Position numbers and translations under genes: made by a program | The notes under the pieces: generated by a model | The model's input: the letters and a program-made list of their open reading frames with translations, nothing else | The model's database searches: none | What the model was told of the DNA's origin: nothing | NCBI RefSeq assembly: GCF_964204645.1 | Contig: NC_134036.1 | Location: 10,085,859-10,149,858 of the forward strand | Length of the DNA: 64,000 bases | Direction: 5' to 3' | Source of the DNA: Tubulanus polymorphus | Taxonomy: Eukaryota > Animalia > Nemertea | In this document: one piece after another, positions 28,315 to 64,000 of the stretch | Position numbering within the stretch: position 1 is the first letter of the stretch | How the letters are laid out: each line of letters opens with the position of its first letter

Positions 28315-28333
28315 TTATTTAGAATAAAAATTA

Positions 28334-28756: not shown

Positions 28757-28780
28757 TTATTTAGTTAAAAAATTATGCAT

Positions 28781-29002
28781 TTATATGGGAGGAATACATT
28801 TTTGTTTTTCCAAATAATCAATTGTTAAATTAGATAAAGTAACTGCTAATGTTAATTTTAAAATATCATTTATATCAAATCTATCAACATTAACACTTCC
28901 CATTTTGAATACTTTTTTTAATACCATTGAATAACCAACTGTTCCAACTGATAGTAATGCACCATTATATAATCCAGTTATTATCCACTTATTATCACTC
29001 AT
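28781..29002 (-). CDS. Small hydrophobic protein (73 aa)
   Basis: 72 of 73 residues identical to 54394-54615. Confidence 0.8.
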   Translation of the reverse strand: MSDNKWIITGLYNGALLSVGTVGYSMVLKKVFKMGSVNVDRFDINDILKLTLAVTLSNLTIDYLEKQKCIPPI

Positions 29003-29359: not shown

Positions 29360-29483
29360 TTATATAGTGAAAAAAAATAAAAATAAATTGGTTGAAAATT
29401 ATATGAATAATATTTATTTTAAAAAAGGGGGTTTTAAGTATTAAATACATTAATACGTATTAGATAGATAGATATACAAATAG

Positions 29484-30095: not shown

Positions 30096-31179
30096 TTATT
30101 CTTTTAATTTTACTAGATAAAATCCATTCATTAAATTTATCATCGTATCCTTTATATTTCACCAAAGAATACTTTTTTCCTTTAAGAGTTTTTGTTTTCA
30201 ATACTTTTTCTATTTTGTATTCTATTTCATCTGGATTTGGTACAAGTGATAATTCTTGTTCATAGAAATAACCTAATATTTCTTCATCTTTTAGATCTTC
30301 TAATTTATAAACAAAAGGTTTAGTTAATATTATCTTTTTAATCTTGAATATTTCTTCTGTAAAATTTGGGGTATAACCTTTATAAAATGTTTTTCGATAT
30401 TTAGATATTCTTACGTGTTGTCCTATTTTAAATTTAGGTTCACCGAAATCGTGTGTAACAAACGCTCCATATAAATTATTCCAAACTATTTCCGAATTAT
30501 CTTCTTTTCTAGCTTGTATAGGTTTCATATTTATAGAACTATGTTTAGAATTATTATAACCTTTCACTAAATCATCTAATACATCTATATATGTATATGT
30601 TTCATTAGCAGTAAAATATTTCCACATTCTAGTTTTCAATGTTTTATTAAATCTTTCTATAATAGATGCCTTTTTATCTGAATGTGTTGAAAAATAATCT
30701 ACATCGTTATCAGATAATAGTTTTTTAAAATGTTTGTTATAAAATTCCTTACCTTCATCAAATTGTATCTTATCTGGAATAGCTTCTTTAAATATTGATT
30801 TAAAAGCATTTGTCACTTCTATACCAGTTTTATTTTTGATTGGAATTGACCACGCGTATCGACTGAATATGTCTATAACATTCAGTATCCAGAAATATCC
30901 TTTGTTGTATTCCTCTAAGTTCTTCATATCAATTAAATCAAATTGCCATTGTTGATCGATATATGAAACCATAACTTTTCTTGTTAAATAAGTTTTATCC
31001 ATTTTCTTGTGGATTTGATATGTTGGTTGATTTTGTAACCATAATCTTAATTCACTATATTTTATATCACCATTTTCATTATCAGATTTAATTTTATTCC
31101 ATAATTCTGAAACGTTAGAATATGATACTTCACTTTCTGGGTTATAATATAAATCTCTTAAATATTGTTCTTTTTTCAT
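30088..31179 (-). CDS. int: rve integrase with chromodomain
   Basis: QWQFDLIDM, IDIFSRYAW, QFDEGKEF, IERFNKTLK and LVKYKGYDDKFNEW motifs. Confidence 0.95.
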   Translation of the reverse strand: MKKEQYLRDLYYNPESEVSYSNVSELWNKIKSDNENGDIKYSELRLWLQNQPTYQIHKKMDKTYLTRKVMVSYIDQQWQFDLIDMKNLEEYNKGYFWILNVIDIFSRYAWSIPIKNKTGIEVTNAFKSIFKEAIPDKIQFDEGKEFYNKHFKKLLSDNDVDYFSTHSDKKASIIERFNKTLKTRMWKYFTANETYTYIDVLDDLVKGYNNSKHSSINMKPIQARKEDNSEIVWNNLYGAFVTHDFGEPKFKIGQHVRISKYRKTFYKGYTPNFTEEIFKIKKIILTKPFVYKLEDLKDEEILGYFYEQELSLVPNPDEIEYKIEKVLKTKTLKGKKYSLVKYKGYDDKFNEWILSSKIKRINE

Positions 31180-31185
31180 CTTATT

Positions 31186-31557
31186 TTAATCCATTAATAA
31201 TAATTTAGATTTAGTTTCAATGGCTTTATGATTTGACTTATTTTCTGGTATAATATGTTTCCGATTGTCATTGGAAACATATTTATCATCAGATTTGAAC
31301 TTTGATTTATATATTACACCGGATAATATAATAACTGTTACTAATCCAATTGTAATATATAATTTATAATTACTTCCAGCATTAGAAGAATCAGATGGAT
31401 TATTATTTGAATCAATATCAGATAAAGTCTGTGATTCATTTATATCAGTTAATTTCTTTTTCTTAACTTTTTTAAATTCTGAAGATCTTTTACCTAATTC
31501 TCTTGCCCATATAATTTGTTTCTCGGATCTAGCCTTTTTCTTAACTCCATCACTCAT
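31186..31557 (-). CDS. Basic single-TM protein (123 aa)
   Basis: Lys-rich N-terminus and LYITIGLVTVIILSGVIY TM segment; homolog at 62963. Confidence 0.8.
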   Translation of the reverse strand: MSDGVKKKARSEKQIIWARELGKRSSEFKKVKKKKLTDINESQTLSDIDSNNNPSDSSNAGSNYKLYITIGLVTVIILSGVIYKSKFKSDDKYVSNDNRKHIIPENKSNHKAIETKSKLLLMD

Positions 31558-32152
31558 TTATTTTAGTTAATTTTTGTTCTGATTCATTTTCTGTTTCGAC
31601 GTTTGGTTGTAGTACATCTGTTTCGTTCTTACCTGATTTATATTCCATAGGTTTGATGTTCGAAAATGGTATGACGCCAGTAGAATTTAATGTCATAACC
31701 GATCCTAATTGAAATGAAGCATAACCAACCCATTTTTGTAATTCAGTCATAACTAAATAGTCATTTTTCAAATCACTATATAATTTATTTTCATCATCAA
31801 TTGGTATTAACTGGTTACATAACTTAGAATAACATTTGACAATACCATTCGAAATAGAATCATTTATTTTAGATAATCTTGCCTCTTCATAAATCTTAAA
31901 ATATTTTATTACTTTATCTGGTTTCATAGAGTCTAGTTCTTGAAAAGTAATGATTCTATTTAAAAACTCCTTAGTTTTTCCACCGGCAATCAATAATTCA
32001 AGATGATGCTTACAATATAAATAGTATTCATAATCTATATTGTTATTAACTTGAATAGAATTAGAAACAACTGTATCTTTATTATCACTTATACCCAAAT
32101 CATCTAATGTCTTTTCAATATCAATACTATTCTTATTAGATTTCTTTGACAT
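31550..32152 (-). CDS. Hypothetical protein (200 aa)
   Basis: Highly similar to 63351-63953. Confidence 0.8.
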   Translation of the reverse strand: MSKKSNKNSIDIEKTLDDLGISDNKDTVVSNSIQVNNNIDYEYYLYCKHHLELLIAGGKTKEFLNRIITFQELDSMKPDKVIKYFKIYEEARLSKINDSISNGIVKCYSKLCNQLIPIDDENKLYSDLKNDYLVMTELQKWVGYASFQLGSVMTLNSTGVIPFSNIKPMEYKSGKNETDVLQPNVETENESEQKLTKINE

Positions 32153-32229
32153 TTATATTAGAGGAAACAAGCAAAAAAAAATATTATAAGTATTATAAAA
32201 TGATACTAGCTAGTTAAAGCTAAAGAATT

Positions 32230-32324
32230 CTAGTATTAGTTATTGTTTTTTTAGTATTTTTTATTTGTGATATAAAGTATTCTTTTTGAAAAGAAAGTAT
32301 TAAAAAAACAATAACTAATACTAG
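32230..32324. repeat. AT-rich hairpin (~33-bp arms)
   Basis: CTAGTATTAGTTATTGTTTTTTTA ... TAAAAAAACAATAACTAATACTAG. Confidence 0.85.
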
Positions 32325-32430
32325 CTTGTTGAAGATATGTAATTTTTAATATATTTTATTTGAATTCTATTTGATATCTCACTACTTTTGTTTATCTATT
32401 AGGAGCAGTAGTTATAACTGTCCAGATAAG

Positions 32431-33105
32431 TCATTTCGGATCCTTGATATCAAATTCCTCAACATATTGTTCATTATTTGGATTATTGTTCCATAATTCA
32501 ACAAATGTCTTTGCTTTATCCAGTTGATCTAAATATAATTTCATATCTAGTTTATTAGATTTAATTATGTTTTCCTTCTTTTCTAAAGGTCTTAAATTTT
32601 TCCAACCCCAAATAAGTTTTTTATTGTATTCATCATTCACGTTAAATTTAGATATTGGTAACACGTGATCAATATGGTAATAATCCCCATAATTATCTAT
32701 ATTCATTTTATCATCGAATTGAAATATAATCCATGATTTGAGAAATTCATCTATACAACCCAACAAATTAGATTGTGTTTCTGAATGTGTTTCTTTGTTG
32801 AATAATTGTGTTAATCTAGACCTTAAGCATTGTTTCAATCTAAAATTAAGATCTGTTTGATATCTTCCTCTCATATATTCTGTCATATAATAATTATAAT
32901 GTTCTATATTATCTTCTCGATATTGTTTGGTATATAGTTTAGTACAAGTTTTACAACAATATTGAAAACCATCTTTGCTAATCTTACGCTTACTAAATTC
33001 TGTTAATGATTTATCTAATTCACACTTAGAACACTTCTTGTAGTATATGTTTATAACACCAGTGTTATTTGTAATATTGATAGTTTGTGGTTGTTCTGGT
33101 TCCAT
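32431..33105 (-). CDS. HNH endonuclease of the type common in large DNA viruses
   Basis: KKCSKC...CKTC zinc module, LRSRL, MNIDNYG.YYHIDHVLP and NLRPL...EN..KSNK. Confidence 0.85.
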   Translation of the reverse strand: MEPEQPQTINITNNTGVINIYYKKCSKCELDKSLTEFSKRKISKDGFQYCCKTCTKLYTKQYREDNIEHYNYYMTEYMRGRYQTDLNFRLKQCLRSRLTQLFNKETHSETQSNLLGCIDEFLKSWIIFQFDDKMNIDNYGDYYHIDHVLPISKFNVNDEYNKKLIWGWKNLRPLEKKENIIKSNKLDMKLYLDQLDKAKTFVELWNNNPNNEQYVEEFDIKDPK

Positions 33106-33239
33106 TTATTATACGTATTTTTTTACTAAATTGGTTAATATTTTAGAATCCTCTTCCATTTTTTCAACCAACGTCATCCTTTTTTCATTCTTCGTTGCTT
33201 TTGATAAGTTGTTTCGATTCCTTGATATCTAAATCATAC

Positions 33240-48571: not shown

Positions 48572-48779
48572 AGTAATAGGGGTAATGGGCTTTCATACCA
48601 AAGGTCGAAAGGTCGAGCCCGAGAAATTTTCCAAAATGTTAAAATAACAACAATTTCTACTTGAATTAGTCGCGTACACTCCTAATTCAAGTAGAAATTA
48701 TTATTATTTTAACATTTTGGAAAATTTATCAACCTCAACCTTTCAACCTTTGATATGAAAGCCCATTACCCCTATTACT
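48572..48779. repeat. 208-bp imperfect palindrome at the left end of element C
   Basis: AGTAATAGGGGTAATGGGCTTTCATA ... TATGAAAGCCCATTACCCCTATTACT; ~98-bp arms with a 12-nt loop. Confidence 0.95.
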
Positions 48780-48861
48780 CTTAAAATATTCATATATATA
48801 TGAATAACATTTAAATCATTGAACTTCTAAAATCAATTTTAATAAAAAATATAGTATTAAA

Positions 48862-51800
48862 ATGGAAGCAAATAAGTACTACTGCCCAACATGTAATATC
48901 GATATAGACAAGTCTCAAAAAGCAAGACACAATAAAACTAGAACACATTTAGAGAATAAATTGAAATTAGAATATGAAGATGATATATTAGAAAATAAAT
49001 TAGAAGAATTAAAGGATGAAAAAGAAACATACAAATGTGATACATGTAATCAATCATTCAGTGATAAAAGATATTATAAAGAACATTTAAAATCTATAAG
49101 TCATATTAGAAATAAGAATAATGATATTTTAGGTGAAGATTATTTTGATAATGATAACGATAAGAAACAGAAGACAATTAAAAGAATAAAAAATAAATTA
49201 AACAATAAAAGACCATATATGGAAGATGTAAGAAATTATATTAATTCATTAGATAATAAAAAAGATATAGAGATAACCGAAGCATTTAAAAGTGATATTG
49301 GTCCAGCAGCTATCGAGTTTAAATTTCATAAAGGTAAAACATTAGAAGAAAATAAAAAACATTTAGAAAATATGAAAGAAATAATAAAAATAATTACAAA
49401 CGTAGAATATCCTAAAATAAGTATATCTTCTAAAGTAAAGTTTATAAAATCTGAAGATAAACCAATATATAATATAAATTCTCATTCACAACATATTATA
49501 TCTAAACAACATATAGATGATAAATTAGATAAATGTTATAATGAAATAAAAACTAAAATAGAAGAGAAATATTTTGAAGGATCTGGTTTAATATTTGATG
49601 AGATAATATTTATAACTTTACATGTTTATAACACAAAATATAATAAGTTAACTAAATCAAAACCAATTGATGAAAATAATTTATCATATTATAAAGATGA
49701 TAGTATAAATGGAACAAGTTATATTAAACTACCATTTAAAACTAATGGTGTAATAAATATACAAAATTTTGATAATAAATGTTTTCTATGGGCTATAATA
49801 AGTTGTTTACATCCAACAGAAGATATTACACATAGTTTTAGATTAACTCATTATAAACAATTTGAAAATAATTATAAGATAGATAAGTATCCTGTTAGAA
49901 TTAAAAATATTCCAAAAATAGAAAGAGATAATAATCTAAAAATAAATGTATTTGATTTAATCAAATTACCAAATACAAAAGGAAATAATATTAAACATTA
50001 TACATTAGAACCTTTATACCTATCAAAAGATTATGATTCAAATGATGTTATAGATATACTATATTATGAGAATCATTACATGTGGATTAAACAAATAGAT
50101 TTATTTTTCAAATCAGAAAATGATCACCATAAAATATATCTATGTAGAAAATGTTTACATAGATTCAGTAATGAAAGTACATTATTAAATCATAAACAAC
50201 TATGTGATAATCATGATTATTGTAAATTAGTTTTACCAAATGAAAAGGATAAAATATTAGAATTCAAAAAATATGATTACAAAAATAAAGTACCATTTGT
50301 AATATATGGAGATTTTGAATCATTAAATAAAGAATTAACAGATAAAGATAGAAAAGATATATATTATAAAAGAAAGAAATTAAATTCTAATGAAAGTGAT
50401 TATTCAGAAGACCCACCAAAAACAAATACAATTAAAAAGATTCATCAATCAGCTGCAGCTTTCGGGTTATATATTAAATCTAATTATCCAGAACTAATCG
50501 AAAGTGAATATTATAATTATAGAAATGAAAATGTTATCAATCATTTTTGTGACTTATTAATTGAATATGAAATAAGATTTAGTAAATTATTGAATACAAA
50601 TAAAGAAATAATTATGACAGAAGAAGATAAAGAAGAATTTGAGTTTGCAGATAAATGTTATTATTGTGAAAAGATATTTAATTATAAAGATAAAAAAGTA
50701 AGAGACCATAATCATTTGAATGGAAAGTTTAGAGGCGCTGCACATGAGAATTGTAACTTACAAGCTAAGAAAATTAACTTTGTACCAGTTATATTTCATA
50801 ATCTATCAGGATATGATGCACATTTATTCATCAAACAGTTATGTCATAAAATAGAAGAAATCAATAATGAAATAGAAATATTAAATTCAAATAGATCAAA
50901 AGATAAAATACCAACTTATAAATTTAGAATGTTAGCTAAAACATCTGAGAATTATATATCTTTCCAATTTGGATGCTTAAGATTTATAGATTCATATAGA
51001 TTTTTAAGTAGTTCATTAGATAACTTATCAAAATCATTAGTTGATGATGAATTAAAGATATTAAAAGAATATTACCCAAATAATGATGATTTTCAATTAA
51101 TGAGATATAAAGGAGCAATTCCATATTCTTTCTATAAAAATCATAATGATTTTAAAATAACTGAATTATTAAAAGAACAATTTTATGATGAATTAAAAAA
51201 TGAATATGTTAAAGATGAAGTATATAATAGAACATTGAATATTTGGAATCATTTCAAAATAGAAAATCATGGTCAATTAGTAGATTTATATTTAAAATCA
51301 GATGTATTATTATTAACCGATATATTCGAAAGGTTTAGAGATGTAAACCTAAAATATTTTAACATTGATCCTTGTCATTGTTATTCATCACCAGGATTAA
51401 CATGGGATTGTGGATTAAAATTTACAGATATAAAAATGGATTTGTTAACAAATATAGATCAATTACTATTATTTGAAAAATCTATAAGAGGAGGTGTTTC
51501 AGGTGTATTGGGTGATAGATATTTTAATGTAAATGATAATCCTGGATATGAATTATTATACATAGATGCAAATAATCTTTATGGTTGGGCAATGATGGAA
51601 CCACAACCTTATGGGATGTTTGAAATAACTGAAGTTTTACAAATTGATAAATTTGATTGGAAGAAAAGAATCCTAGATATTGCAGATGATTCAGATACTG
51701 GTTACTTCTTTGTTGTAGATTTAGAATACCCTGAAAATATAAAATTCAAATCTAGAAATCTAGCATATTGTCCCGAACATAAAACTGTTAAACATGAAGA

Positions 51801-52890
51801 ATTATCAAATTATCAAAAAAGAATTAAACCCGATAATCATATTCATACAGAAAAGTTAATGGTAACTCAAGAAGATAAATATAATTATGTAGTACATTAT
51901 AGAATGTTAAAATTCTATTTGAATCAAGGAATGATATTAAAAAAAGTACATAGATATATTTCATTTAATCAATCTAAGTGGTTAGAAAAATATATAGATT
52001 TTAATACTACACAGAGAACTGAAGCTAAAACTGATTTTGAGAAGGATTTTTTTAAGTTAATGAACAATGCGTTCTATGGAAAAACATGTGAAAACATAAG
52101 AAATAGAAGTGATATTGAGTTAGTTAGTAATGGTAAAAGGATAAGGCATTTACAATCGTATCCGAAATTCATAGGTAATAGAATATTCGATGAAAATTTA
52201 GCTGCAGTTAAGATGAGGAGAACTTCTATGAAGTTCAATAAACCAATCTATGTTGGTGCATCAGTTCTAGAAATTTCAAAATTATTAATGTATCAATTTT
52301 ACTATAACATATTACAACCCCATTTTGGAGAAAAAAATATAGAAATATTATATCTAGATACTGACAGTTATATATTAAAGATAAAAAGTGATAATATAAA
52401 TGATGATTTAAAAATATTAAATCATCATTTTGATTTCAGCAATTATCCCAAAGATCATGAACTATTTAGCAATGATAATAAAAAAGTTCCTGGGAAGTTT
52501 AAGGATGAATTAGGTGGTGAAGAAATGATAGAGTTCATAGGTATTAGATCTAAAATGTATTCATATAAAACTAAAGAACATGAAGCTAAAAAGTTAAAAG
52601 GAATTACTAAAAGTGTAGTAGAAAAGAATATTCATTTCAAAGATTACATCAATTGTATATTTAATGAAGAAGTTAGAAAACATAAGATGAAATGTTTAAG
52701 ATCTGAAGATCATGAAATGTATATTGAAGAGATAGAGAAGATAAGTCTAAACCCATTTGATGATAAAAGATATATTTTAGATGATGGAATCCACACAGTC
52801 GCCTATGGTTGCAATTTAGATGAATATATAAAATTCAAAAGAGAAGAAACAAAAGAAAATGAAATTATGAAAAGGATTCTAACGTGTTAA
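48862..52890 (+). CDS. polB: Protein-primed DNA polymerase B (1342 aa) with N-terminal zinc fingers, OTU-like domain and HNH/EndoVII-like insert
   Basis: YGDFES, FHNLSGYD, DANNLYG, KLMNNAFYGK and DTDS motifs; NKCFLWAI...HYMWI; CYYC...RDHNHLNGKFRGAAHENCN. Confidence 0.97.
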   Translation: MEANKYYCPTCNIDIDKSQKARHNKTRTHLENKLKLEYEDDILENKLEELKDEKETYKCDTCNQSFSDKRYYKEHLKSISHIRNKNNDILGEDYFDNDNDKKQKTIKRIKNKLNNKRPYMEDVRNYINSLDNKKDIEITEAFKSDIGPAAIEFKFHKGKTLEENKKHLENMKEIIKIITNVEYPKISISSKVKFIKSEDKPIYNINSHSQHIISKQHIDDKLDKCYNEIKTKIEEKYFEGSGLIFDEIIFITLHVYNTKYNKLTKSKPIDENNLSYYKDDSINGTSYIKLPFKTNGVINIQNFDNKCFLWAIISCLHPTEDITHSFRLTHYKQFENNYKIDKYPVRIKNIPKIERDNNLKINVFDLIKLPNTKGNNIKHYTLEPLYLSKDYDSNDVIDILYYENHYMWIKQIDLFFKSENDHHKIYLCRKCLHRFSNESTLLNHKQLCDNHDYCKLVLPNEKDKILEFKKYDYKNKVPFVIYGDFESLNKELTDKDRKDIYYKRKKLNSNESDYSEDPPKTNTIKKIHQSAAAFGLYIKSNYPELIESEYYNYRNENVINHFCDLLIEYEIRFSKLLNTNKEIIMTEEDKEEFEFADKCYYCEKIFNYKDKKVRDHNHLNGKFRGAAHENCNLQAKKINFVPVIFHNLSGYDAHLFIKQLCHKIEEINNEIEILNSNRSKDKIPTYKFRMLAKTSENYISFQFGCLRFIDSYRFLSSSLDNLSKSLVDDELKILKEYYPNNDDFQLMRYKGAIPYSFYKNHNDFKITELLKEQFYDELKNEYVKDEVYNRTLNIWNHFKIENHGQLVDLYLKSDVLLLTDIFERFRDVNLKYFNIDPCHCYSSPGLTWDCGLKFTDIKMDLLTNIDQLLLFEKSIRGGVSGVLGDRYFNVNDNPGYELLYIDANNLYGWAMMEPQPYGMFEITEVLQIDKFDWKKRILDIADDSDTGYFFVVDLEYPENIKFKSRNLAYCPEHKTVKHEELSNYQKRIKPDNHIHTEKLMVTQEDKYNYVVHYRMLKFYLNQGMILKKVHRYISFNQSKWLEKYIDFNTTQRTEAKTDFEKDFFKLMNNAFYGKTCENIRNRSDIELVSNGKRIRHLQSYPKFIGNRIFDENLAAVKMRRTSMKFNKPIYVGASVLEISKLLMYQFYYNILQPHFGEKNIEILYLDTDSYILKIKSDNINDDLKILNHHFDFSNYPKDHELFSNDNKKVPGKFKDELGGEEMIEFIGIRSKMYSYKTKEHEAKKLKGITKSVVEKNIHFKDYINCIFNEEVRKHKMKCLRSEDHEMYIEEIEKISLNPFDDKRYILDDGIHTVAYGCNLDEYIKFKREETKENEIMKRILTC

Positions 52891-52918
52891 TAAATTTCAA
52901 TAAAAATTTGTATAATAA

Positions 52919-53260
52919 ATGGAGAGTAAACAAGTACACAGTGAATTCTTAGATAGAATTAAAGATACCACAAATGTAAAATCTGTAGATTATAAATTCA
53001 AAAAGTTAACAGAATTAACAATTCACAAGAAATATCTAATTACTAACATTGAAACAATTACTAATAAATATGGAGATAAATTAGTTATACACTTAGAATA
53101 TGAAGGATTAAAAGGAAATACATATAAATTCAGAACTTATTTACCAGATAGATTTCATAGATTATCAAGTGAAGATCTAGAAGAATTATGTTCTGGAGAT
53201 TTCTATTTCGTATACAAAGGTAAGAATGAAAAAGGGCACCATGAAATAGATTTCGAATGA
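52919..53260 (+). CDS. Small conserved protein (113 aa)
   Basis: Conserved in element B; follows pPolB. Confidence 0.8.
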   Translation: MESKQVHSEFLDRIKDTTNVKSVDYKFKKLTELTIHKKYLITNIETITNKYGDKLVIHLEYEGLKGNTYKFRTYLPDRFHRLSSEDLEELCSGDFYFVYKGKNEKGHHEIDFE

Positions 53261-53275
53261 AAATATGTAAAATAA

Positions 53276-54034
53276 ATGGTAGAATTAAAAGAATACAGAA
53301 TATTTGTTGATTCTAGAAAACTTACAAATTATAAATCACATAATTTATTAGTACAATTAGATAGAGAATTCAAGAATTGTGTAGATTTAAAATTAGTAAA
53401 TATAAGTTTATGTAATTCTTTTTACAATATATCAAATAAAACTATTGAACATAATACTTTTTTAATTCATATTAGAAATATAAATAAATGGTTTCATCTA
53501 TTTCTAAGACCAGGATTATATAATTTAGAAACATTATCTCAAGAAATTAATCGTAGAGCACGGTTGAAAATTAGAAAAGATGATAAATTTTTAATAAGAT
53601 TTATAAAAAGTGATAGCTCAAATAGAATTAAAATAAAGGTATTTGATGAAAGTCAACATGCATTTATGGTAAAAAAACCTATAGCTAAATTGCTAGGAAT
53701 TGAACCAGATGTTGTTACAGTAAACGTAGAAGGTATTTCAAATATAATACCTTTTACACATTTTTATATTTATTGCAATTTAATTGACCCAACAAAAACA
53801 TTTGAAGCAACTAAAGATACAACATGTAATTCTAGTATATTAAATATTTTACCATTAAAAAATTTTAAAGAATTTGGAACGCAAATAAATTATAATTTAA
53901 CAGAATGTGATTTCAAACCATGCATTCCTAGTTTTAATAATTTTAGATTAGAAATTAGAAATCATAATGGATACTTAATTGATTTAAATAATTTCCCTGT
54001 AATTTATGAATTATTTATAAGATGTAAAGAGTAA
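53276..54034 (+). CDS. Probable minor capsid (penton) protein
   Basis: Penton-like N- and C-terminal motifs; central region diverged from element B. Confidence 0.75.
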   Translation: MVELKEYRIFVDSRKLTNYKSHNLLVQLDREFKNCVDLKLVNISLCNSFYNISNKTIEHNTFLIHIRNINKWFHLFLRPGLYNLETLSQEINRRARLKIRKDDKFLIRFIKSDSSNRIKIKVFDESQHAFMVKKPIAKLLGIEPDVVTVNVEGISNIIPFTHFYIYCNLIDPTKTFEATKDTTCNSSILNILPLKNFKEFGTQINYNLTECDFKPCIPSFNNFRLEIRNHNGYLIDLNNFPVIYELFIRCKE

Positions 54035-54051
54035 TTTTTTTCACTATATAA

Positions 54052-54393
54052 ATGAATATAACTGTTGGACCGAGTATATGTTTTGGGTTTGATTTTAAAC
54101 ATGGTAAAGAAATGAGAATTAAACTAAATGATGTAATTACTGATATAAAAAGTAAATCATTTAACAATGCATCAATGATTGATAAAGAAAAGTATAATAT
54201 AGAAAAAGTAATTGATTTAATTAAATCACCTTTAGAATATTATGAATTAAATGAAGATGGAATTATTGAAGATATTAAAAACATATTATCCAAAATATAT
54301 GATAATCATAAAACTAGTAATGAAATAAATGTTGAATTAATCATAAATAAGTTAACTAAATATTTTGAAGATAGTAATTTTTTTGATAAATAA
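54052..54393 (+). CDS. Hypothetical protein (113 aa)
   Basis: Homolog of 29003-29359. Confidence 0.75.
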   Translation: MNITVGPSICFGFDFKHGKEMRIKLNDVITDIKSKSFNNASMIDKEKYNIEKVIDLIKSPLEYYELNEDGIIEDIKNILSKIYDNHKTSNEINVELIINKLTKYFEDSNFFDK

Positions 54394-54615
54394 ATGAGTG
54401 ATAATAAGTGGATAATAACTGGATTATATAATGGCGCATTACTATCAGTTGGAACGGTTGGTTATTCAATGGTATTAAAAAAAGTATTCAAAATGGGAAG
54501 TGTTAATGTTGATAGATTTGATATAAATGATATTTTGAAATTAACGTTAGCAGTTACTTTATCTAATTTAACAATTGATTATTTGGAAAAACAAAAATAT
54601 ATTCCTCCCATATAA
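54394..54615 (+). CDS. Small hydrophobic protein (73 aa)
   Basis: Homolog of 28781-29002. Confidence 0.8.
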   Translation: MSDNKWIITGLYNGALLSVGTVGYSMVLKKVFKMGSVNVDRFDINDILKLTLAVTLSNLTIDYLEKQKYIPPI

Positions 54616-54639
54616 ATGCATAATTTTTTTGCTAAATAA

Positions 54640-55057
54640 ATGGCTTCTGCAATTATAACTATTATAGGATCGGCAATTGTTAACGCTTTAGCATTCACTG
54701 GTGGTGGTTATTTATTTAAACATATTGATAAAAATAGTTCATTAGGAGAACAAAGAAGACATAACGTTAGAGAAATACAATAAAGCTGCAGAAGAATATA
54801 GAGAAAAGAGACAAAACTATATGGATTACATCAATAAAGAATTATATGATCAGAAGATTTCACATAGAGATTTTCAATCAGTTGATGATGCAATGAGTTT
54901 ATATAACACAGTAACAAATAAAGAAAAATTACATCTATACAAACCCAAATTATCAGATTATTATACCCCAAGTAAAGAACAACAGAAATATGAAATAATA
55001 TGGATTTTAGGTGGAACTGTTATTGTTATATTTGTTGCTTATAAGTTTACTAATTAA
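54640..55057 (+). pseudogene. Membrane protein, frameshifted near 54765
   Basis: MASAIITIIGS start at 54640; small deletion relative to the intact B copy (28334-28756). Confidence 0.8.
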
Positions 55058-55082
55058 TTATTTATTATTTTTTGTTAAATAA

Positions 55083-55517
55083 ATGGAAGATAAAGTTGAT
55101 AATATTGATATTATTCCTCATGATATAAATAAAACTAAATTAAAAACATATTTAGAAAAACAAATATTAGAATTTGAAAGTGACTTAAAGATAAAAAAGA
55201 AAAAATATTTAAAAAGTAAAATTATATATTATTTGATTATAAGTGGTTCGGTTACAATTAGTTCTGTAATAACATTTCTAGCAATATTCAGCCCATTAAC
55301 ACCTTTAGCTATATCAATTGGTGTATTAGGATTAAGTTCAAGTGTTTTAACCGGTATAAGTTCAAAATTAAATATAAAAAGTAATAAAGAAAAAATCAAA
55401 ACTAATATAAAAGAAATTAATAAATTAAAGAATACACTAGATTATATAATAAGTTTAAATGGTCATAAAACAGTTGAAGAACAAGATAAATTATTAAAAG
55501 AATTAATAAATTATTAA
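55083..55517 (+). CDS. Two-TM membrane protein (144 aa)
   Basis: Homolog of 27880-28314. Confidence 0.8.
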   Translation: MEDKVDNIDIIPHDINKTKLKTYLEKQILEFESDLKIKKKKYLKSKIIYYLIISGSVTISSVITFLAIFSPLTPLAISIGVLGLSSSVLTGISSKLNIKSNKEKIKTNIKEINKLKNTLDYIISLNGHKTVEEQDKLLKELINY

Positions 55518-55533
55518 TTTTTTAATTATATAA

Positions 55534-56922
55534 ATGGTAGATAGTTTTCCAAAAGCTTTCCGATATAATAAATCAATTAAATATAATATTCCAGCAATAG
55601 ATTTTAATAAAGATATTACATATAGAAATGAAGTTTTAGATTCATTAACTAATTTAGAAATTTATGTTACTGAAACTAATAATTTTAATGCAAAGATGGA
55701 AAATATATTTCATGTATATTTAATTAATTTTAAAAAATTGAAAGATGAAAAACAATGGTTATTAAAATCTAATATGAAGTATTGGCAGAATCAATTAAAT
55801 TTTGCTGTTTATTGTGCAACAACAGGATGTGGAATTAGTTGGAATGATCATTTGAATAATTCTAAATATAAATTAATTCAAAGTTTATTTAGATTTCATA
55901 CATACTTTCAAATCAGAATAATATTAAATGAATTAGAGTGCGCTTTACCAGGATCTAGATATTTTAAAGAATTAGATAATAATATTAATTTATCTAAGTT
56001 TTATAAGATTTGCAATGAATTTAATATAGATATAAATAATTCTGATTTTAGAACAAAAATTGGAACAATAAGATCACTTCCTTGCCCTAAAAAGATTGCA
56101 GAATATTGTGCACTTCCCATACCATCTAATAGTTTTTATAATATCTATAATAAAAAATTAGGTTATGGTAAAATAGAAACAAATGATTTAGAAACATTAA
56201 ATTTCAATAAAACACCGAAATTTTATGATAATTTAAAACAAGAAAACAATAATGGTTGGGTTTATTTTATTTTAGAAAATAGTGAAGGTTTTACAAAATC
56301 AGGTATAGAAAGAATAAATCAATCTATTAGAACTTATTTGATTTGTATTCTAGGATCACAAGTTGAAACAAGATCACCGATAATTGGAAATTTGAATACA
56401 TCATTTGATACACAAAAACAATTTAAAGTTTTATTTGAAGATTCCATACATAATGATAAAAATAGATCGATTCCAGAAAACATTATAAGATATCAAAATT
56501 ATTTAGATAAATCTCATGTAAGACTAAATTATTGTATAGGCCCTAATCTATTAATTATTTCTAATGATTTAGTATTAAAGATGGGAAACATAATTGGTTA
56601 TAATAATCTAATTAAAACTGCAACAATAAATAATTCATTTGGATTGAATGATATAAATAAAAAGATTATTACTGCTCCAAAATTAATGGAAGGTGAAAAA
56701 AATAAAAAACATATTCAATCAACTGAAACTAAAACTAAAAATATTAAATTGGATAATGATTCTAAAATAAAAGATTACAGTACATCAGAAAATAATAGAA
56801 CTGATAAAATTCAACATGATATAATTAAACTAAATGATGATAATAAATCCCATGAAAATACTAAATTAGCTATAACTTGTATAGGAATTGTAATCGGAGG
56901 AATATTATATTTTAAATTTTAA
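55534..56922 (+). CDS. 462-aa protein with C-terminal membrane anchor
   Basis: Intact ORF; LAITCIGIVIGGILYFKF tail; conserved in element B. Confidence 0.85.
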   Translation: MVDSFPKAFRYNKSIKYNIPAIDFNKDITYRNEVLDSLTNLEIYVTETNNFNAKMENIFHVYLINFKKLKDEKQWLLKSNMKYWQNQLNFAVYCATTGCGISWNDHLNNSKYKLIQSLFRFHTYFQIRIILNELECALPGSRYFKELDNNINLSKFYKICNEFNIDINNSDFRTKIGTIRSLPCPKKIAEYCALPIPSNSFYNIYNKKLGYGKIETNDLETLNFNKTPKFYDNLKQENNNGWVYFILENSEGFTKSGIERINQSIRTYLICILGSQVETRSPIIGNLNTSFDTQKQFKVLFEDSIHNDKNRSIPENIIRYQNYLDKSHVRLNYCIGPNLLIISNDLVLKMGNIIGYNNLIKTATINNSFGLNDINKKIITAPKLMEGEKNKKHIQSTETKTKNIKLDNDSKIKDYSTSENNRTDKIQHDIIKLNDDNKSHENTKLAITCIGIVIGGILYFKF

Positions 56923-56938
56923 TTTTTTTATTATGTAA

Positions 56939-58500
56939 ATGGATGTAGAAGGTGGAGAAGATTATGAAATGGGAGAAATGGGAAATAATAATGAAGGATA
57001 TATTGATGATGAACCACAACCAGATTTTAATGAAACTAATATTGATAATGATGATGAATCAGCATATAATTCTAATTTAGCAGATAGTGGTTCTAAAGTC
57101 CCATCAACAGATGAATTTGATAGAAGAACTAGATCGAGAATAAATCCTGAAAATGAAAATCAAGGTTTATAAAGACAAAATTTAGAAAATATTGAATATA
57201 TTTATAAGTTTCAAGATGTATTTAAAAAATCTGGATATAATATAAATTACAGAGGCGCCAGACTTTTAGTAAAAGATTTAAAATATTTAGATGGTGAATA
57301 TTATTATAAATTGAAAGATGATTATTATATTAACATCTCTTATAAAACTCAAAATATAATATTAGCAGAATCAACTTTGCTTAAGTTAGAACCAGATAGA
57401 ATTAAGAGAATAAGTAATAGAAATGAAATAACTGATGTTACACAAGAAGAAAGAGATAATAATAGAAAAGAATTTAAACAAAGAATTAATGAATTATTTG
57501 AAATAATCGATAATAATCCAGAAACGGAAATGGAAGAGAATAGAGATAAATTAAGATCTTCAACACCCGAAACATCGAGAAGAGACACTCAACAAATTGA
57601 TAATGATTCAAGTCAATTACAATTAGTATTAGAAAAACAAATTGATAGATTAAGAGATTCATTTGACGAAGAGATGAATAGTGCTGGAATAAATCGAATA
57701 CAATCTTTACTAGAAAAAGGATTACTTGATTTATCAGCTGATGAATTAGAATCATTTCCTGAACAAGCACGTACAGAAATTAAAGGTATGCAAGAATCAG
57801 CTGATAAAATTGCACATGATAAAAGTAAAAGAGATATTAAAATTAGATTTTTAGAAAAAGATAGAACTGATAAAAATAAAGAAATAGAACAATTAAAATT
57901 AGATAGAGATAATAAAGTTATTGAAGAAATTGAATTTAAAAAAAGAAATGCATATTTAGAAAAAGAAATTGATGATTTAGAATATAACATAGAATTACAA
58001 AAAGAAGAAATTAAATTATTGTTAAAATCATATGATTATAATATAAATAGATTAAAAGTTATTTTTAAAGATTTGTTGATTAAACCAAATTCTGAAATAT
58101 CATTAAAAGATAGAATAAAGTTATTATTTAAATTAGAAGGAATAACAATTCTTTCAATTCTAACAGCTGTAACTATGTTATTTACAACAATAGGTTTAGC
58201 TATATCAAATGCTTTAAAATCTACTCCTACTCCCAATAAACCAGATAAACCTCCAGGTAATAATTCTATACAAGATAAAGTTAAAGATGGTTTGAGAAAT
58301 TAGCAAAATATTTATGGGAACTATCTAAAAAATCTGCTGCAGCTTTACCAGGAATTATTGCATCAATTGTTGGTTTCATATTGAAATCTGCAGGAAACAT
58401 TATTAACTTTGCTGCTGAACATATTATTTTATTTTTAATCACAGTTGTAAGTGCTATTATTTTTGGTTTAGTAAATATGATATCAAAAAATATCAAGTAA
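56939..58500 (+). pseudogene. Acidic/coiled-coil protein with C-terminal hydrophobic helices; stop at 57170 and frameshift near 58295
   Basis: ORFs 56939 and 57311 share a frame; the tail LPGIIASIVGFILKSAG...IILFLITVVSAIIFGLV lies in a shifted frame. Confidence 0.75.
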
Positions 58501-58554
58501 ACCATGATATCAAAAAATATCAAAAAATAAATAATTAATTTTTTTGTTAAATAA

Positions 58555-59802
58555 ATGAGTGGGAGTTATATCAGTCCTTCTAAGATTTCTAGAATATCTA
58601 ATGCTATTAAAGCAGAAAGATCACATCATATAATTACTCATAACCCTTCAAATATTAATCCCGATGAAACTTTATATGTTAGAATTCCGAGATTAACACA
58701 AAATACTTTTTATGTTCCAAATAGTATTTATTTATCAGCTGATATAAAAGTAATCGGTAATAATAATAATTATGTTGTTGATAATGTTGGAAGATATTTG
58801 AGTAAAAAGTTAACAATAAAGATTGGTCCGGAAACAGTTTTCTCATTAGATGATTATAATTTATTTTCACATTATAAAGATTTATGGTTAACTAAAGAAA
58901 ACAGAAATAATATGATATTTCAAGGCATCCAATCAGAAAACCAAAATAAATTAAGATCAGAAGCTAATAGCGCAATATTAACAAATGATGTAGATAAATT
59001 GATAAAAAGTATATATGGAAACAAATATAAAATTCCATTAGACTTTGAATTGATAAATAATAATGCACCTTTATATAAATACGCAATTCAAGAAGATGTT
59101 ATATTTGAGATAACATTTGCTCCTGTAAATGAAATTGTAATATCTAGTGTTAATAAAGATATGAGTTATAAATTATCGAATATATGTTTAGAATATGATA
59201 CAGTAACTGATGAAAATATTGCTAGAACAATTCAAACTCAATACAACCAAGGGTTTTCATTATTATATGATTATATTGATAAATTTAAAACTGTAACTAT
59301 TAATGCAAATGATGAAATAATAAATGAGAATATTAACTTCCCAAGAAGATCTATTAAAGGTATATTAATATTTTTTACTATTGGAACATATACTAATGGC
59401 GCAATAAATGTTGACAATTATTATAATCCTGAAATAACAAAAGTAGAAATAACTATCGAAGGTATAGCGAATAAAATATTTTGTCAAGGAATGAGAATGA
59501 TAGATCAATGGGTAGAAATTAAAAAACATTTTATGAATGAAAAAGTAAAATCATTTGAAAATTGTAACATTAATCAAATTGATTATTATACTGGTAATAA
59601 ATATGCATTATGGTTAGATTTTAGAACAACTGAAGATAACTTATTACATGGTTCTGGAAAAAAACTACAAAACACTAAAGATGGAATACAATTATTCATG
59701 ACAAAGAAAAAGGGAATCAAAAATTTTAAAATGCATATTTATATTATATCTGACGCGCAATTAAATATTGTAAATTCACAATTAGATAGTGTTATGTATT
59801 AA
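58555..59802 (+). CDS. Probable double jelly-roll major capsid protein (415 aa)
   Basis: Size, beta-rich pattern (ITHNPSNINPDETLYVRIPRL...LEYD...NINFPRRSIKGILIFF...LWLDFR), high B/C conservation and genomic context. Confidence 0.75.
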   Translation: MSGSYISPSKISRISNAIKAERSHHIITHNPSNINPDETLYVRIPRLTQNTFYVPNSIYLSADIKVIGNNNNYVVDNVGRYLSKKLTIKIGPETVFSLDDYNLFSHYKDLWLTKENRNNMIFQGIQSENQNKLRSEANSAILTNDVDKLIKSIYGNKYKIPLDFELINNNAPLYKYAIQEDVIFEITFAPVNEIVISSVNKDMSYKLSNICLEYDTVTDENIARTIQTQYNQGFSLLYDYIDKFKTVTINANDEIINENINFPRRSIKGILIFFTIGTYTNGAINVDNYYNPEITKVEITIEGIANKIFCQGMRMIDQWVEIKKHFMNEKVKSFENCNINQIDYYTGNKYALWLDFRTTEDNLLHGSGKKLQNTKDGIQLFMTKKKGIKNFKMHIYIISDAQLNIVNSQLDSVMY

Positions 59803-59834
59803 AATTTTAACTTTAATAAAAATATATATAATAA

Positions 59835-60866
59835 ATGGAAGGTGGAATATATGAAATACAAACTCCAAGTGAAATGATATCAGATATATATTATATATTA
59901 CCTTATGATGAATACAGTAAGTATTTTGGAGATTACTTTAATCAATTCAAATATAGAATAAGTAAAATAGATAAGAATATTGATATAAAAATAGAAGATA
60001 ATATTGAAACAAAAATAGAAGATAAGAATGATATTGAATATAAAATAGAAGATAATGTTATACCTTCTACATCGAATGATGATAAGATTGAAACAAAAAT
60101 AGAATATAATATTGAACCTAAAATAGAAAAATCAAATGTTCAACCAAAAGATAACATCAGATGTATGTATTGTGAAGAAGATTTTGATAATTATAATGAT
60201 TATTTATTACACATCAAAAAAGATGAACATATTTTACAATTAGTAAAAACATATGCCAATATGTATAAAAATAAATGCAAAGAGGATCAGAATTATTGTG
60301 CTTTCTGTAATGAATGTATAACAAAGGCTAATTGGGCAAAACATTATAAATTAAAAACAAAAAGTGGAAATGATTCAGCCCATGCAATACAAGTATTTAA
60401 ATCTTGGTGTGAAAAATGTAAAGAATATGTAATATATGATAAACAATTGAATCATAAATACTCAATTAAACATATTGGTACAGATAATGTAATAGAAGAT
60501 CCAACAGTTATAAATCCAAAATTTAATAATAATAATATATTAGATTATCGGTGGTATAGAAAAACATTTATAGATTATTTATTGAGTAATGATATAGTTA
60601 CCATATTGAAAAAGTTAGATAACTTTAAACCAAATGTAAGTTATGCAATGAACTTATTTGAACTTAAATATGATGATTTTAGAGAATTTTTAAATAAACA
60701 TCCATCTAAAACTGAAATCGAAAATTATATTCCAAAAATATTTTCAAGAAAAACATTCAATAAATATAAATTTGGGAATCATTTAGGACTTATATCAAAG
60801 ATAATGCAAAGGGATATATATTTAGAATACAATAAGCTTAAAGAAAAATATGAAAATGAAAATTAA
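59835..60866 (+). CDS. Variable-slot multi-zinc-finger protein (343 aa)
   Basis: CMYC...H...H, CAFC...H and CEKC...H...H fingers; KIED repeats. Confidence 0.75.
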   Translation: MEGGIYEIQTPSEMISDIYYILPYDEYSKYFGDYFNQFKYRISKIDKNIDIKIEDNIETKIEDKNDIEYKIEDNVIPSTSNDDKIETKIEYNIEPKIEKSNVQPKDNIRCMYCEEDFDNYNDYLLHIKKDEHILQLVKTYANMYKNKCKEDQNYCAFCNECITKANWAKHYKLKTKSGNDSAHAIQVFKSWCEKCKEYVIYDKQLNHKYSIKHIGTDNVIEDPTVINPKFNNNNILDYRWYRKTFIDYLLSNDIVTILKKLDNFKPNVSYAMNLFELKYDDFREFLNKHPSKTEIENYIPKIFSRKTFNKYKFGNHLGLISKIMQRDIYLEYNKLKEKYENEN

Positions 60867-60870
60867 AAAG

Positions 60871-61250
60871 ATTATAGAATTCACTGTATATTGATGGATG
60901 AATGGATGAGTTGGAAGAGTTGGATGAGTTGGATGAGTGGAAGAGTGGATGAGTATAATAATATATATATATTTTACTTTTTAACACATAAATTGGAAGA
61001 ATAGTATGAGTATAAATATAATATTTATATTCTTTATTAAATTTAACACAATATATATATATTATTAAAATAATATTTAAATATAGTATAAAATTGATAA
61101 AATAACTTCAAATCAAACTCTTACTGTTTTAAAAATAAAAAACATATGTAAATTATATATTATTACACTCATCCATTCATCCACTCATCCAATTCATCCA
61201 ATTCATCCAATTCATCCACTCATCCATTAGTATACAGTGAATTCTATAAT
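60871..61250. repeat. Inverted repeat (~95-bp arms of GGATGA(A/G)T units) between convergent gene blocks
   Basis: ATTATAGAATTCACTGTATA...(TGGATGAG)n versus (CTCATCCA)n...TATACAGTGAATTCTATAAT. Confidence 0.92.
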
Positions 61251-61266
61251 ATTTTGAATTAGGATT

Positions 61267-61878
61267 TTATTTTATAAATTTATATTCATAAGGAAATTGT
61301 AATCTCATAAGTAATTTGGAACCTTTATTATTTTTTAATTTATTCATATATTCATCATGTAATTCAGTAGGTATAATTTGATTTTCTTCCAATGATTGTT
61401 GCATAGATTTTCTATCTTTGTTATAAAATAAAACTAGAAATCTTATATTCTCTCTAAAATCTTTAACAATTGAATTATATTTTTGATTTAAAACCCATGT
61501 TGTTATCCCAAAATGTCTACCAGAGAAAGCTAAATAACATAACTCACTTTCTCTAATTTTAGAATCATGTAAATTTGCGCAATCATCGATAATAAATAAT
61601 GTATTAGATCCTTTATAAATATCTAATGCAATTTTTATACAATTATCTAAATTTTCTTTTACTGTTTTAGGGTCTAATATAATAAACTTTTTTATCTTAA
61701 CTATATCTCTATTATATGTTTTATTCATTTCATATGTAGGACAGAATAATATTATATTATCAAAATGATTTTTATAAATAGTTTCTAACAAATCTAATAT
61801 GAAATGTGTTTTACCACAATTTGTAACTCCAGTAACTAACATATTATGTGGTTCAAATATAAATAAATCTTTATTCAT
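61267..61878 (-). CDS. A32/FtsK-like packaging ATPase
   Basis: GVTNCGKT, FIIDD and GRHFGI motifs. Confidence 0.93.
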   Translation of the reverse strand: MNKDLFIFEPHNMLVTGVTNCGKTHFILDLLETIYKNHFDNIILFCPTYEMNKTYNRDIVKIKKFIILDPKTVKENLDNCIKIALDIYKGSNTLFIIDDCANLHDSKIRESELCYLAFSGRHFGITTWVLNQKYNSIVKDFRENIRFLVLFYNKDRKSMQQSLEENQIIPTELHDEYMNKLKNNKGSKLLMRLQFPYEYKFIK

Positions 61879-62956
61879 TTATTCTTTTAATTTTACTAGA
61901 TAAAATCCATTCATTAAATTTATCATCATATCCTTTATATTTCACCAAAGAATACTTTTTTCCTTTAAGAGTTTTTGTTTTCAATACCTTTTCTATTTTG
62001 TATTCTATTTCATCTGGATTTGGTACTAATGATAATTCTTGTTCATAAAAATAACCTAATATTTCTTCATCTTTTAAATCAAACAATTTATAAACAAATG
62101 GTTTAGTTAATATTATCTTTTTAATTTTAAATATTTCTTCAGTAAAATTAGGGGTATAACCTTTATAAAATGTTTTTCGATATTTAGAAATTCTAACATG
62201 TTGTCCTATTTTAAATTTAGGTTCTCCAAAATCATGTGTAACAAACGCGCCATATAAATTATTCCAAACTATTTCTGAATTTTCTTCTTTTCTAGCTTGT
62301 ATAGGTTTCATATTTATAGAACTATGGTTAGAATTATTATAACCTTTCACTAAATCATTTAACACATCGATATATTTATATGTTTCATTAGCGGTGAAAT
62401 ATTTCCACATTCTAGTTTTCAATGTTTTATTAAATCTTTCTATAACAGATGCTTTTATATCTGAATGTGTTGAAAAATATTCTACATCGTTATCAGTTAA
62501 TAGTTTTTTAAAATGTTTGTTATAAAATTCTTTACCTTCATCAAATTGTATTTTATCTGGGATAGCTTCTTTAAATATTAATTTGAAAGAATTTGTAACT
62601 TCTATACCAGTTTTATTTTTGATTGGAATTGACCATGCGTATCTACTGAATATATCTATAACATTTAGTATCCAAAAATATCCTTTGTTATATTCTTCTA
62701 AGTTTTTCATATCAATTAAATCAGCTTGCCACTGTTGGTCAATATATGAAACCATTACTTTTCTTGTTAAATATTTTTTATCCATCTTTTTATGAATTTG
62801 ATATGTTGGTTGATTTTGTAACCATGATTTTAATTCACTATATTTTATATTGCTATTATCAGATTTAATTTTATTCCATAATTCTGAAACGTTAGAATAT
62901 GATACTTCACTTTCTGGGTTGTAATATAAATCTCTCAAATATTGTTCTTTTTTCAT
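61871..62956 (-). CDS. int: rve integrase with chromodomain
   Basis: QWQADLIDM, QFDEGKEF and IERFNKTLK (DDE triad intact); C-terminal chromodomain. Confidence 0.95.
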   Translation of the reverse strand: MKKEQYLRDLYYNPESEVSYSNVSELWNKIKSDNSNIKYSELKSWLQNQPTYQIHKKMDKKYLTRKVMVSYIDQQWQADLIDMKNLEEYNKGYFWILNVIDIFSRYAWSIPIKNKTGIEVTNSFKLIFKEAIPDKIQFDEGKEFYNKHFKKLLTDNDVEYFSTHSDIKASVIERFNKTLKTRMWKYFTANETYKYIDVLNDLVKGYNNSNHSSINMKPIQARKEENSEIVWNNLYGAFVTHDFGEPKFKIGQHVRISKYRKTFYKGYTPNFTEEIFKIKKIILTKPFVYKLFDLKDEEILGYFYEQELSLVPNPDEIEYKIEKVLKTKTLKGKKYSLVKYKGYDDKFNEWILSSKIKRINE

Positions 62957-62962
62957 CTTATT

Positions 62963-63358
62963 TTAATCCATTAATAATAATCTTGGTTTATTTTCAATGA
63001 CTTTATCATTTGACTTATTTTCTGGTATGATAGGTTTATTGTCATTGGAATCATCTTTATCATCAGATTTGAATTTTGATTTATATATTACACCAGATAA
63101 TATAATAACTGTTACTAATCCAATTGTAATATATAATTTATAATTACTTCCAGCATTAGAAGAATTAGATGGATTATTATTTGAATCAATACCACCGTGT
63201 GGGTGCCGTACGGCACCATCAGATAATTTCTGTGATTCATTTATATCAGTTAATTTCTTTTTCTTAGCTTTTTTTAATTCTGATGATCTTTTACCTAATT
63301 CTCTTGCCCATTTAATTTGTTTCTCGGATCTAGGCTTTTTCTTAACGCTATCACTCAT
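62963..63358 (-). CDS. Basic single-TM protein (131 aa) with a 9-aa insertion
   Basis: Homolog of 31186-31557 plus GAVRHPHGG. Confidence 0.8.
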   Translation of the reverse strand: MSDSVKKKPRSEKQIKWARELGKRSSELKKAKKKKLTDINESQKLSDGAVRHPHGGIDSNNNPSNSSNAGSNYKLYITIGLVTVIILSGVIYKSKFKSDDKDDSNDNKPIIPENKSNDKVIENKPRLLLMD

Positions 63359-63953
63359 TTATTTTAGTTAATTTTTGTTCTGATTCATTTTCTGTTTCAC
63401 TGTTTGGTTGTAGTACATCTGTTTCGTTCTTACCTGATTTATATTCCATAGGTTTGATGTTCGAAAATGTTATGACACCAGTAGAAATTAATGTCATAAC
63501 CGATCCTAATTGAAATGAAGCATAACCGACCCATTTTTGTAATTCAGTCATAACTAAATAGTCATTTTTCAAATCATTATATAATTTATTTTCATCATCA
63601 ATTGGTATTAACTGGTTACATAATTTTGAATAACATTTGACAATACCATTCGAAATAGAATCATTTATTTTAGATAATCTTGCCTCTTCATAAATCTTAA
63701 AATATTTTATTACTTTTTCTTTATTCATATTATCTAATTCTTGAAAAGTTATTGTTTTACCAATAAACTCTTTAGTTTTTCCACTCGCAATCAATAGTTC
63801 TAGATGATGCTTACAATATAAATAGTATTCATAATCTATATTGTTATTAACTTGAATAGAATTAGAAACAACTGTATCCTTATTATCACTAATACCTAAA
63901 TCATCTAATGTTTTTTCAATATCAATACTATTCTTATTAGATTTCTTTGACAT
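63351..63953 (-). CDS. Hypothetical protein (200 aa)
   Basis: Homolog of 31550-32152. Confidence 0.8.
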   Translation of the reverse strand: MSKKSNKNSIDIEKTLDDLGISDNKDTVVSNSIQVNNNIDYEYYLYCKHHLELLIASGKTKEFIGKTITFQELDNMNKEKVIKYFKIYEEARLSKINDSISNGIVKCYSKLCNQLIPIDDENKLYNDLKNDYLVMTELQKWVGYASFQLGSVMTLISTGVITFSNIKPMEYKSGKNETDVLQPNSETENESEQKLTKINE

Positions 63954-64000
63954 TTATATTAGAGAAATTTAATAAGAATAGTATTATAAGTATTATAAAA

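Follow-up and report, generated by a model that had tools for sequence, protein, structure and literature searches.

A poxvirus-type start motif in a clade of Polintons, including an element integrated in the genome of Tubulanus polymorphus

Helper-matched promoters have a precedent in endogenous virophages (10.1101/2025.10.09.676808), and an association of Polinton-like viruses (PLVs) with poxviruses has one in the entomopoxviruses (PMC11296320). Only in the virophages of protists has it been established that promoters match those of a helper. The word "promoter" is absent from two 2026 classification preprints (word search), and no report of pox-type promoters in Polintons was found in the literature searched, which left subscription journals largely outside. 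Here we analyze element C, which spans position 48572 to the end of a 64,000-nucleotide stretch of the nemertean Tubulanus polymorphus (NCBI RefSeq assembly GCF_964204645.1, contig NC_134036.1, positions 10,085,859 to 10,149,858 of the forward strand), the whole of which is referred to as the window. By its gene content, which comprises a protein-primed family-B DNA polymerase (pPolB), an rve integrase, an A32 ATPase and a double-jelly-roll capsid protein, element C is a Polinton integrated in the host genome; its GC content is 20–26%, and it has 15 gene starts under the standard code. The window also holds a Maverick, element A, and a degraded copy of the C family, element B.

The start motif in element C and its relatives

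A preliminary description of this DNA had drawn attention to the sequence context in which the genes of element C start, and a recount gives the same figures: TAAATG stands at 13 of the 15 starts, the two exceptions being pPolB (TAAAATG) and the integrase (TAAGATG). The upstream elements named there were likewise recovered, namely a run of six or seven T that is separated by six or seven nucleotides from TAAATG at all seven genes starting at 54052, 54394, 54640, 55083, 55534, 56939 and 58555, and AATAAAAA 9 nt upstream at pPolB and at the genes starting at 52919 and 59835. The chance expectation of about 6% per gene had been set slightly low, but harmlessly so: The upstream composition yields 8–9%, and TAAATG occurs at 6.1% (38/621) of the non-start ATGs. 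The excess in C corresponds to a binomial p of ~1e-12 and a Fisher p of 1e-13, and 100,000 resamplings reached a maximum of 7 TAAATG. Within the window, the extended pattern T5-N5-8-TAAATG has 26 overlapping matches against 2.8 expected, all of which lie within elements B and C.

Element B carries TAAATG at 11 of its 14 listed starts, which, owing to its identity of about 90% to C, provide no independent evidence. Element A lacks the motif, as had been claimed (0/13 hand-picked and 0/17 automatically called starts), while the introns ascribed to it are plausible only, with four GTAAGT donors on the minus strand between 4878 and 5890; GTAAGT hexamers are also present in B (3) and C (5), and the ATPase of A is broken by a frameshift and not by an intron. 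As an element that bears a TBP homologue (8848–9372; Pfam E 4.6e-33), A is a natural nuclear-type contrast to B and C.

Relatives were collected with an alignment of 44 capsids, which led to 156 metagenomic loci, the best 80 of which were kept; scans of viral contigs with the major capsid protein (MCP) yielded no relative. In a quick MCP tree (88 rows, 17 of them proteins and 71 from the window and the loci, the latter with matches of at least 300 aa), C falls within a clade with an SH-aLRT support of 98, and in the pPolB tree it groups with locus L007 (support 99). The groups used for counting were drawn after the start motifs and the MCP tree were known, three loci too short for this tree (L031, L068 and L080) were assigned according to their identity, and some of the loci nearly duplicate one another; a start was defined as the first ATG of an open reading frame (ORF) of at least 90 aa, so that some starts are mis-called. 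Counted in this way, TAAATG is found at 54/65 ORF starts of 16 close loci, some of them with 40–44% GC, where 4.3 are expected, and at 9 of the 12 starts in a second subclade of five loci. The remaining 56 distant loci show it at 5/320 starts, and the 12 of them below 38% GC at only 1/43. L006–L008, with 35–44% GC, retain the motif at 7/9 starts, and only one of the 54 TAAATG starts in the close loci is a stop-start junction. TAAATG is a clade-wide and lineage-specific start motif that is independent of GC content and does not stem from translational coupling.

The low GC content of C and the start at 54394, which abuts the preceding stop, could suggest that the motif merely results from a high AT content and from the coupling of stops and starts within a compact genome. 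This explanation is extremely improbable and was rejected on the motif counts, with a single coupled start and with TAAATG persisting at 44% GC, on the AT-rich controls, and on a fixed upstream T that is described below.

Elsewhere in the tree, L015, L017 and L033 form a subclade within the larger MCP group that shows the motif at 0/16 starts; it lies beside the two TAAATG subclades at an unresolved fork, which means either a single loss of the motif or two gains. A further 38 loci, retrieved by way of their polymerase, have TAAATG at 27/334 starts, with a concentration in L092 (7/7) and L104 (5/14). L092 (1–9034; 38% GC) is a distant Polinton with an internal 184-nt palindrome and an integrase of 503 aa, whose N-terminal extension looks protease-like by eye, and its TAAATG starts possibly represent an independent origin of the motif. 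Divergent gene pairs with overlapping back-to-back promoters of ~25–35 nt, in which TAAATG is present on both strands, were seen in L009, L010, L011, L012, L013, L050 and L092. In L003, a T-run TAAATG start precedes a deoxynucleoside kinase (10340–10981; E 1.7e-31), a type of gene that would suit cytoplasmic replication.

Resemblance to poxvirus promoters and a proposed source of transcription

In vaccinia, the TAAAT of late promoters overlaps the start codon, as a rule with G as the next base, and the 10th nucleotide upstream is a conserved T, while intermediate promoters have TAAA, only sometimes followed by TG, and an AT-rich stretch 15–19 nt upstream (PMC11980589); a T-containing core lies 5–7 bp from TAAAT (PMC5294985). 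Annotations of TAAATG extend to salmon gill poxvirus (PMC4542343). To compare these positions, we profiled the bases upstream of 67 distinct TAAATG starts from C and 14 loci, with L002 and L014 excluded: T stands 10 nt ahead of the first A in TAAAT at 62/67 starts, as against 39/120 non-start TAAATG, and is the most fixed upstream base, while A peaks at −16 and −15. The same T is present at 24 of the 27 starts that come from the ten more distant of these loci, and the TAAAATG of pPolB fits the published description of intermediate promoters (PMC11980589). The promoter grammar of pox type that had been proposed for C is supported on more grounds than were available at first, since the motif is clade-wide, independent of GC content and uncoupled, and since the −10 T lies at the published position within one base.

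On the basis of this grammar, we lean towards the view that a co-infecting pox-type virus supplies the RNA polymerase which transcribes the genes of element C, in the cytoplasm and in place of host polymerase II. An RNA polymerase gene was not recognized in the visible part of C, the genes are separated by spacers of 0–32 nt, and a sense AATAAA lies inside each of the 10 C genes checked (18 in pPolB), which would be awkward for nuclear polyadenylation; taken together, these features make a pox-type helper polymerase the best explanation. That C depends on a helper of some kind is likely. In the proposed course of events, the integrated copies would be silent in the nucleus until element DNA gets to the cytoplasmic factory of the helper, where promoters with an A-rich core (intermediate-like) would drive pPolB and the SSB-like protein, and T-run (late-like) promoters the particle genes. 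Initiation within TAAAT would produce leaderless mRNAs with a non-templated 5' poly(A), the hairpin at the terminus may have a role in replication or excision, and the integrase would bring about new insertions.

Several observations weigh against a pox-type helper, the first of which concern the promoters themselves. Five C genes (53276, the ATPase, the integrase, 63358 and 63953) match neither upstream class by the patterns used, and in the second TAAATG subclade the −10 T occurs at only 5/9 starts, which is not significant. Counted from the T of the motif, the −10 T is the 9th base upstream, so that the agreement with the "10th nucleotide" of the published text holds only within one base. 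Of the proposed division into late and intermediate classes, the presence of both upstream types in C stands, but it is not kept gene by gene in L003, the closest long relative, where the homologue of the SSB-like gene is preceded by a T-run and that of the probable penton gene by an A-core: The promoter class is not conserved. The motif is, moreover, not unique to Poxviridae, since yeast pGKL elements use TAAAN initiators (PMC6211774).

This last point bears on the possibility that C does depend on a helper, but on a different virus or virus-like element of the cytoplasm whose related polymerase initiates at TAAAT, for example an undescribed lineage of Pokkesviricetes. Besides the pGKL initiators, the 7/7 TAAATG starts of the distant lineage L092 would be compatible with such a helper, and the egovirus preprint describes no promoters (word search). 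We nevertheless consider it rather unlikely, as TAAATG over the start codon, a T at −10 and an A-rich core at −15 are combined in the pattern published for poxviruses (PMC11980589), while the late promoters of asfarvirus-like viruses are TATATA (PMC11788076).

The searches for a helper weigh in the same direction as the promoter irregularities. A search of viral contigs by promoter pattern gave 50 loci with TAAATG at 39/368 starts and no pox-like genome by that measure, one promising giant-virus bin showed no genome-wide excess of TAAATG (60 versus 62 in the control), and a Pfam scan of 83 proteins brought up neither a subunit of an RNA polymerase nor any other gene specific to poxviruses. L144, with TAAATG at 4/5 starts, resembles a bacteriophage tail block. 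Of the earlier suggestion that a pox-like virus transcribes a latent element, the promoter grammar is thus what held up, whereas neither a helper genome nor a pox-derived gene turned up in the scans.

Two final counterpoints to a pox-type helper concern the nucleus. AATAAA is not depleted in C (60 versus 59 expected), although this test is non-discriminating because it is also undepleted in AT-rich relatives that lack the motif (68 versus 72); TTTTTNT (16 versus 49) and likewise AAAAAA (152 versus 228) are depleted in the close loci without discriminating, and TTTTTNT in C alone (6 versus 10) does not differ significantly. Furthermore, hundreds of germline insertions require nuclear integrase activity, which a cytoplasmic helper alone does not explain. 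Both points favor a helper-free alternative, in which host polymerase II reads the element and TAAATG with its T-run is a lineage-specific initiator or translation-start context: Nuclear expression is the simplest way to account for hundreds of copies amplified in the germline, the AATAAA test fails to separate the clade from its AT-rich relatives, and the TBP that other Polintons such as element A carry implies that private nuclear promoter codes exist. Yet no TBP or TFIIB was recognized in B and C, the short spacers offer limited space for promoters and polyadenylation sites of the polymerase II type, element A lacks the motif in the same genome, and a fixed T at −10 is not predicted by translation context. 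We therefore regard transcription by polymerase II as decidedly unlikely.

The promoters could finally be a relic of an earlier helper-dependent life, the copies in the host being dead or mobile only as transposons. The degradation of B, the two interrupted genes of C and the identity of most element-family reads to C of 90–99% fit this explanation, which we consider very improbable all the same: All five core ORFs of C have their full length, and intact promoters are seen in B, in C and in relatives down to 52% MCP identity, which would need recent purifying selection.

Extended beyond C, a pox-type helper leads to a broader proposal that we put forward only tentatively and hold to be somewhat doubtful. 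According to it, a widespread clade of endogenous animal Polintons would be virophages of poxviruses, whose silent germline copies are activated by the intermediate and late machinery of an undiscovered invertebrate poxvirus, replicate from their hairpin ends in its factories and perhaps act as an inherited defense against poxviruses, with the motif having arisen more than once (L092). If this were true, the motif would be a marker for unknown poxvirus-host pairs. A pox-type motif that is clade-wide and exact in position makes the helper dependence of animal Polintons testable, offers a sequence test by which nuclear Polintons could be told from helper-dependent ones, and predicts that pox-like viruses exist in hosts without any recorded so far.

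Termini, gene content and neighboring elements

The left end of C is a palindrome of 208 nt (48572–48779) with 98-nt arms and a 12-nt loop, which begins with AGTA and ends with TACT; the arms are 91% complementary, and the predicted DNA fold has −79 kcal/mol (z −20). A motif resembling a concatemer-resolution sequence was not seen by eye beside this hairpin. Raw DNA reads leave the element at 48572 and 48571 (1357 and 480 reads, respectively) into flanks that agree by only 34–35%, which identifies a true insertion end present at many sites; the AGTA end meets many different flanks, and the right end lies outside the window. Three joints, covered by 52, 45 and 26 reads, connect the outer hairpin arms within single reads by way of shorter interiors, and some copies have a different self-complementary insert between the arms, so that the left hairpin is a trait of the family with a variable interior. 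As terminal palindromes are reported from virophages and PLVs of protists, chiefly from ones that lack pPolB (10.64898/2026.07.28.741278), we rejected the palindrome as a pox-specific sign. A rough copy number was obtained from about 12% of a read run that bears the same species label but stems from another individual: A depth of ~2 in the unique flank compares with 260–730 in most element bins, which indicates a family on the order of 250 copies at an identity of at least 90%.

The first gene of C encodes pPolB (48862–52890, plus strand; 1342 aa), which contains N-terminal zinc fingers, a Cys/His region, an endonuclease VII insert and the catalytic motifs of family B in order, and starts with an A-rich core and TAAAATG. 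We take the Cys/His region to be OTU-like, going by its motif. The polymerase has thousands of homologues and aligns at 35% over 1140 aa with that of loci whose polymerase matches PF03175; having itself no PF03175 match but the family-B motifs and the endonuclease VII insert, it fits the Beta class (PMC8502044). One close homologue of 1693 aa (P0173) matches PF14528 and PF14890. These are presumably the LAGLIDADG and intein families, and it is possible that this protein contains an intein.

Downstream of pPolB, an A-rich core and TAAATG precede a gene for an OB-fold protein (52919–53260, plus strand), which is probably a single-stranded DNA-binding protein (SSB): Its structural model (pLDDT 83) has OB-fold matches at middling Z (4–5.6) and a phage SSB as the top viral match (E 2e-5, TM 0.51). 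The next gene (53276–54034, plus strand; TAAATG) encodes a probable minor capsid (penton) protein of 252 aa with 44% identity to an ORF of L003 and a weak pairwise match (E 8e-4) to an L104 ORF taken as penton; the penton label itself rests on sequence motifs. Six small or membrane-associated genes follow on the plus strand (54052–58530; starts at 54052, 54394, 54640, 55083, 55534 and 56939), each with T6-7-N6-7-TAAATG, and those starting at 54640 and 56939 are interrupted in the C copy relative to their L003 homologues; these are the two accessory genes that contrast with the full-length core. The MCP, a double jelly roll of 415 aa (58555–59802, plus strand; T7-N6-TAAATG), yields a model with a pLDDT of 88.5 that matches the PBCV-1 capsid (E 8e-17). 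It is followed by a zinc-finger-like protein of 343 aa (59835–60866, plus strand; A-rich core and TAAATG), for which the Atlas gives weak zinc-finger leads with scores below 0.9.

An inverted repeat with 115-nt arms (87%; 60853–61268) marks the junction of two converging gene blocks; comparable repeats occupy this junction in L001, L002 and L005 and, in L003, the stretch directly past the ATPase. The minus-strand block contains the A32-type packaging ATPase (61267–61878; Pfam Pox_A32, E 1e-11; TAAATG), which is no sign of a pox origin because the family is common to all Polintons, the retroviral-type integrase with chromodomain (61871–62956; Pfam rve E 8.5e-9, Chromo E 8e-5; TAAGATG), and two conserved genes of 131 and 200 aa (62963–63953), both with TAAATG, beyond which the element continues past the end of the window. 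An adenain-type protease (Peptidase_C5) was not matched in C, whose right end lies beyond the window, in the extra genes of B or in 11 ORFs of L019, while the protease of A was detected.

Element B (18739–33145) is 85–92% identical to C, but its structural block is inverted (22453–29569 versus 54032–59845 in C) and flanked by the related repeats 22453–22927 and 29353–29569; gene order also differs in L001, L003 and L007. Its left side is interrupted by a Penelope-like retroelement, which adjoins the truncated pPolB of B, no right terminal repeat of B was found, and a homologue search with its extra nuclease-like gene returned eight unnamed proteins. Maverick A (about 487–16990) is nested in this Penelope-like retroelement, which has a reverse transcriptase at 16987–17856 and inverted ends at 1–166 and 18575–18738. 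Capsid relatives were also seen on megabase contigs and in a bivalve, and the P0046 cluster and L103–L118 are capsid and polymerase relatives filed under bacterial genome records and bins, which are probably contaminating eukaryotic or viral DNA.

Comparison with known systems

Among the Mavericks/Polintons (Polintoviricetes), the Beta-PolB "adintoviruses" of Starrett et al. share with C a pPolB that has an OTU-like N-terminus and no PF03175 match, an rve integrase, an A32 ATPase, a double-jelly-roll MCP, a probable penton, a terminus starting with AG and many genomic copies (PMC8502044). They differ from C, in the visible part of which no adenain protease was recognized, whose start motif is of pox type nearly throughout and whose terminal hairpin is long (PMC8502044); the word "promoter" is absent from the main text of that paper. 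The PLVs associated with entomopoxviruses (AHEV_PLV1/2, CBEV_PLV1 and Ca_PLV1) are, like C, small capsid-encoding elements and have been proposed as hyperparasites of poxviruses, but are set apart by gene content, as their genomes contain a protease and either a tyrosine recombinase or no integrase that is known, whereas C has rve (PMC11296320). Neither "promoter" nor "TAAAT" was found by word search in the text of that paper.

The late and intermediate promoters of vaccinia resemble those of C in the position of TAAAT(G) over the start, a T-rich core 5–7 nt upstream, a T near −10 and an A-rich core near −15 with TAAA (PMC11980589, PMC5294985), yet in C these are putative promoters of a chromosomally integrated element that has no polymerase of its own. 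Yeast pGKL elements combine, like C, a pPolB with TAAAN initiators, which in pGKL yield 5' poly(A) leaders, but in contrast to C they have their own RNA polymerase, lack capsid and integrase, and rely on an upstream element akin to the early promoters of poxviruses (PMC6211774).

The endogenous virophages of the Mavirus/EMALE type in Cafeteria, with similar elements in Halocafeteria and Tetraselmis, are integrated pPolB/rve elements like C, and their promoters copy the late motif of the helper (10.1101/2025.10.09.676808, 10.64898/2026.07.28.741278). They differ in having giant-virus (CroV-type) motifs, protist hosts and virophage capsids, while C has a pox-type motif, another capsid lineage and a putative dependence on a helper. 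By analogy with these virophages, element C most likely works in the same manner.

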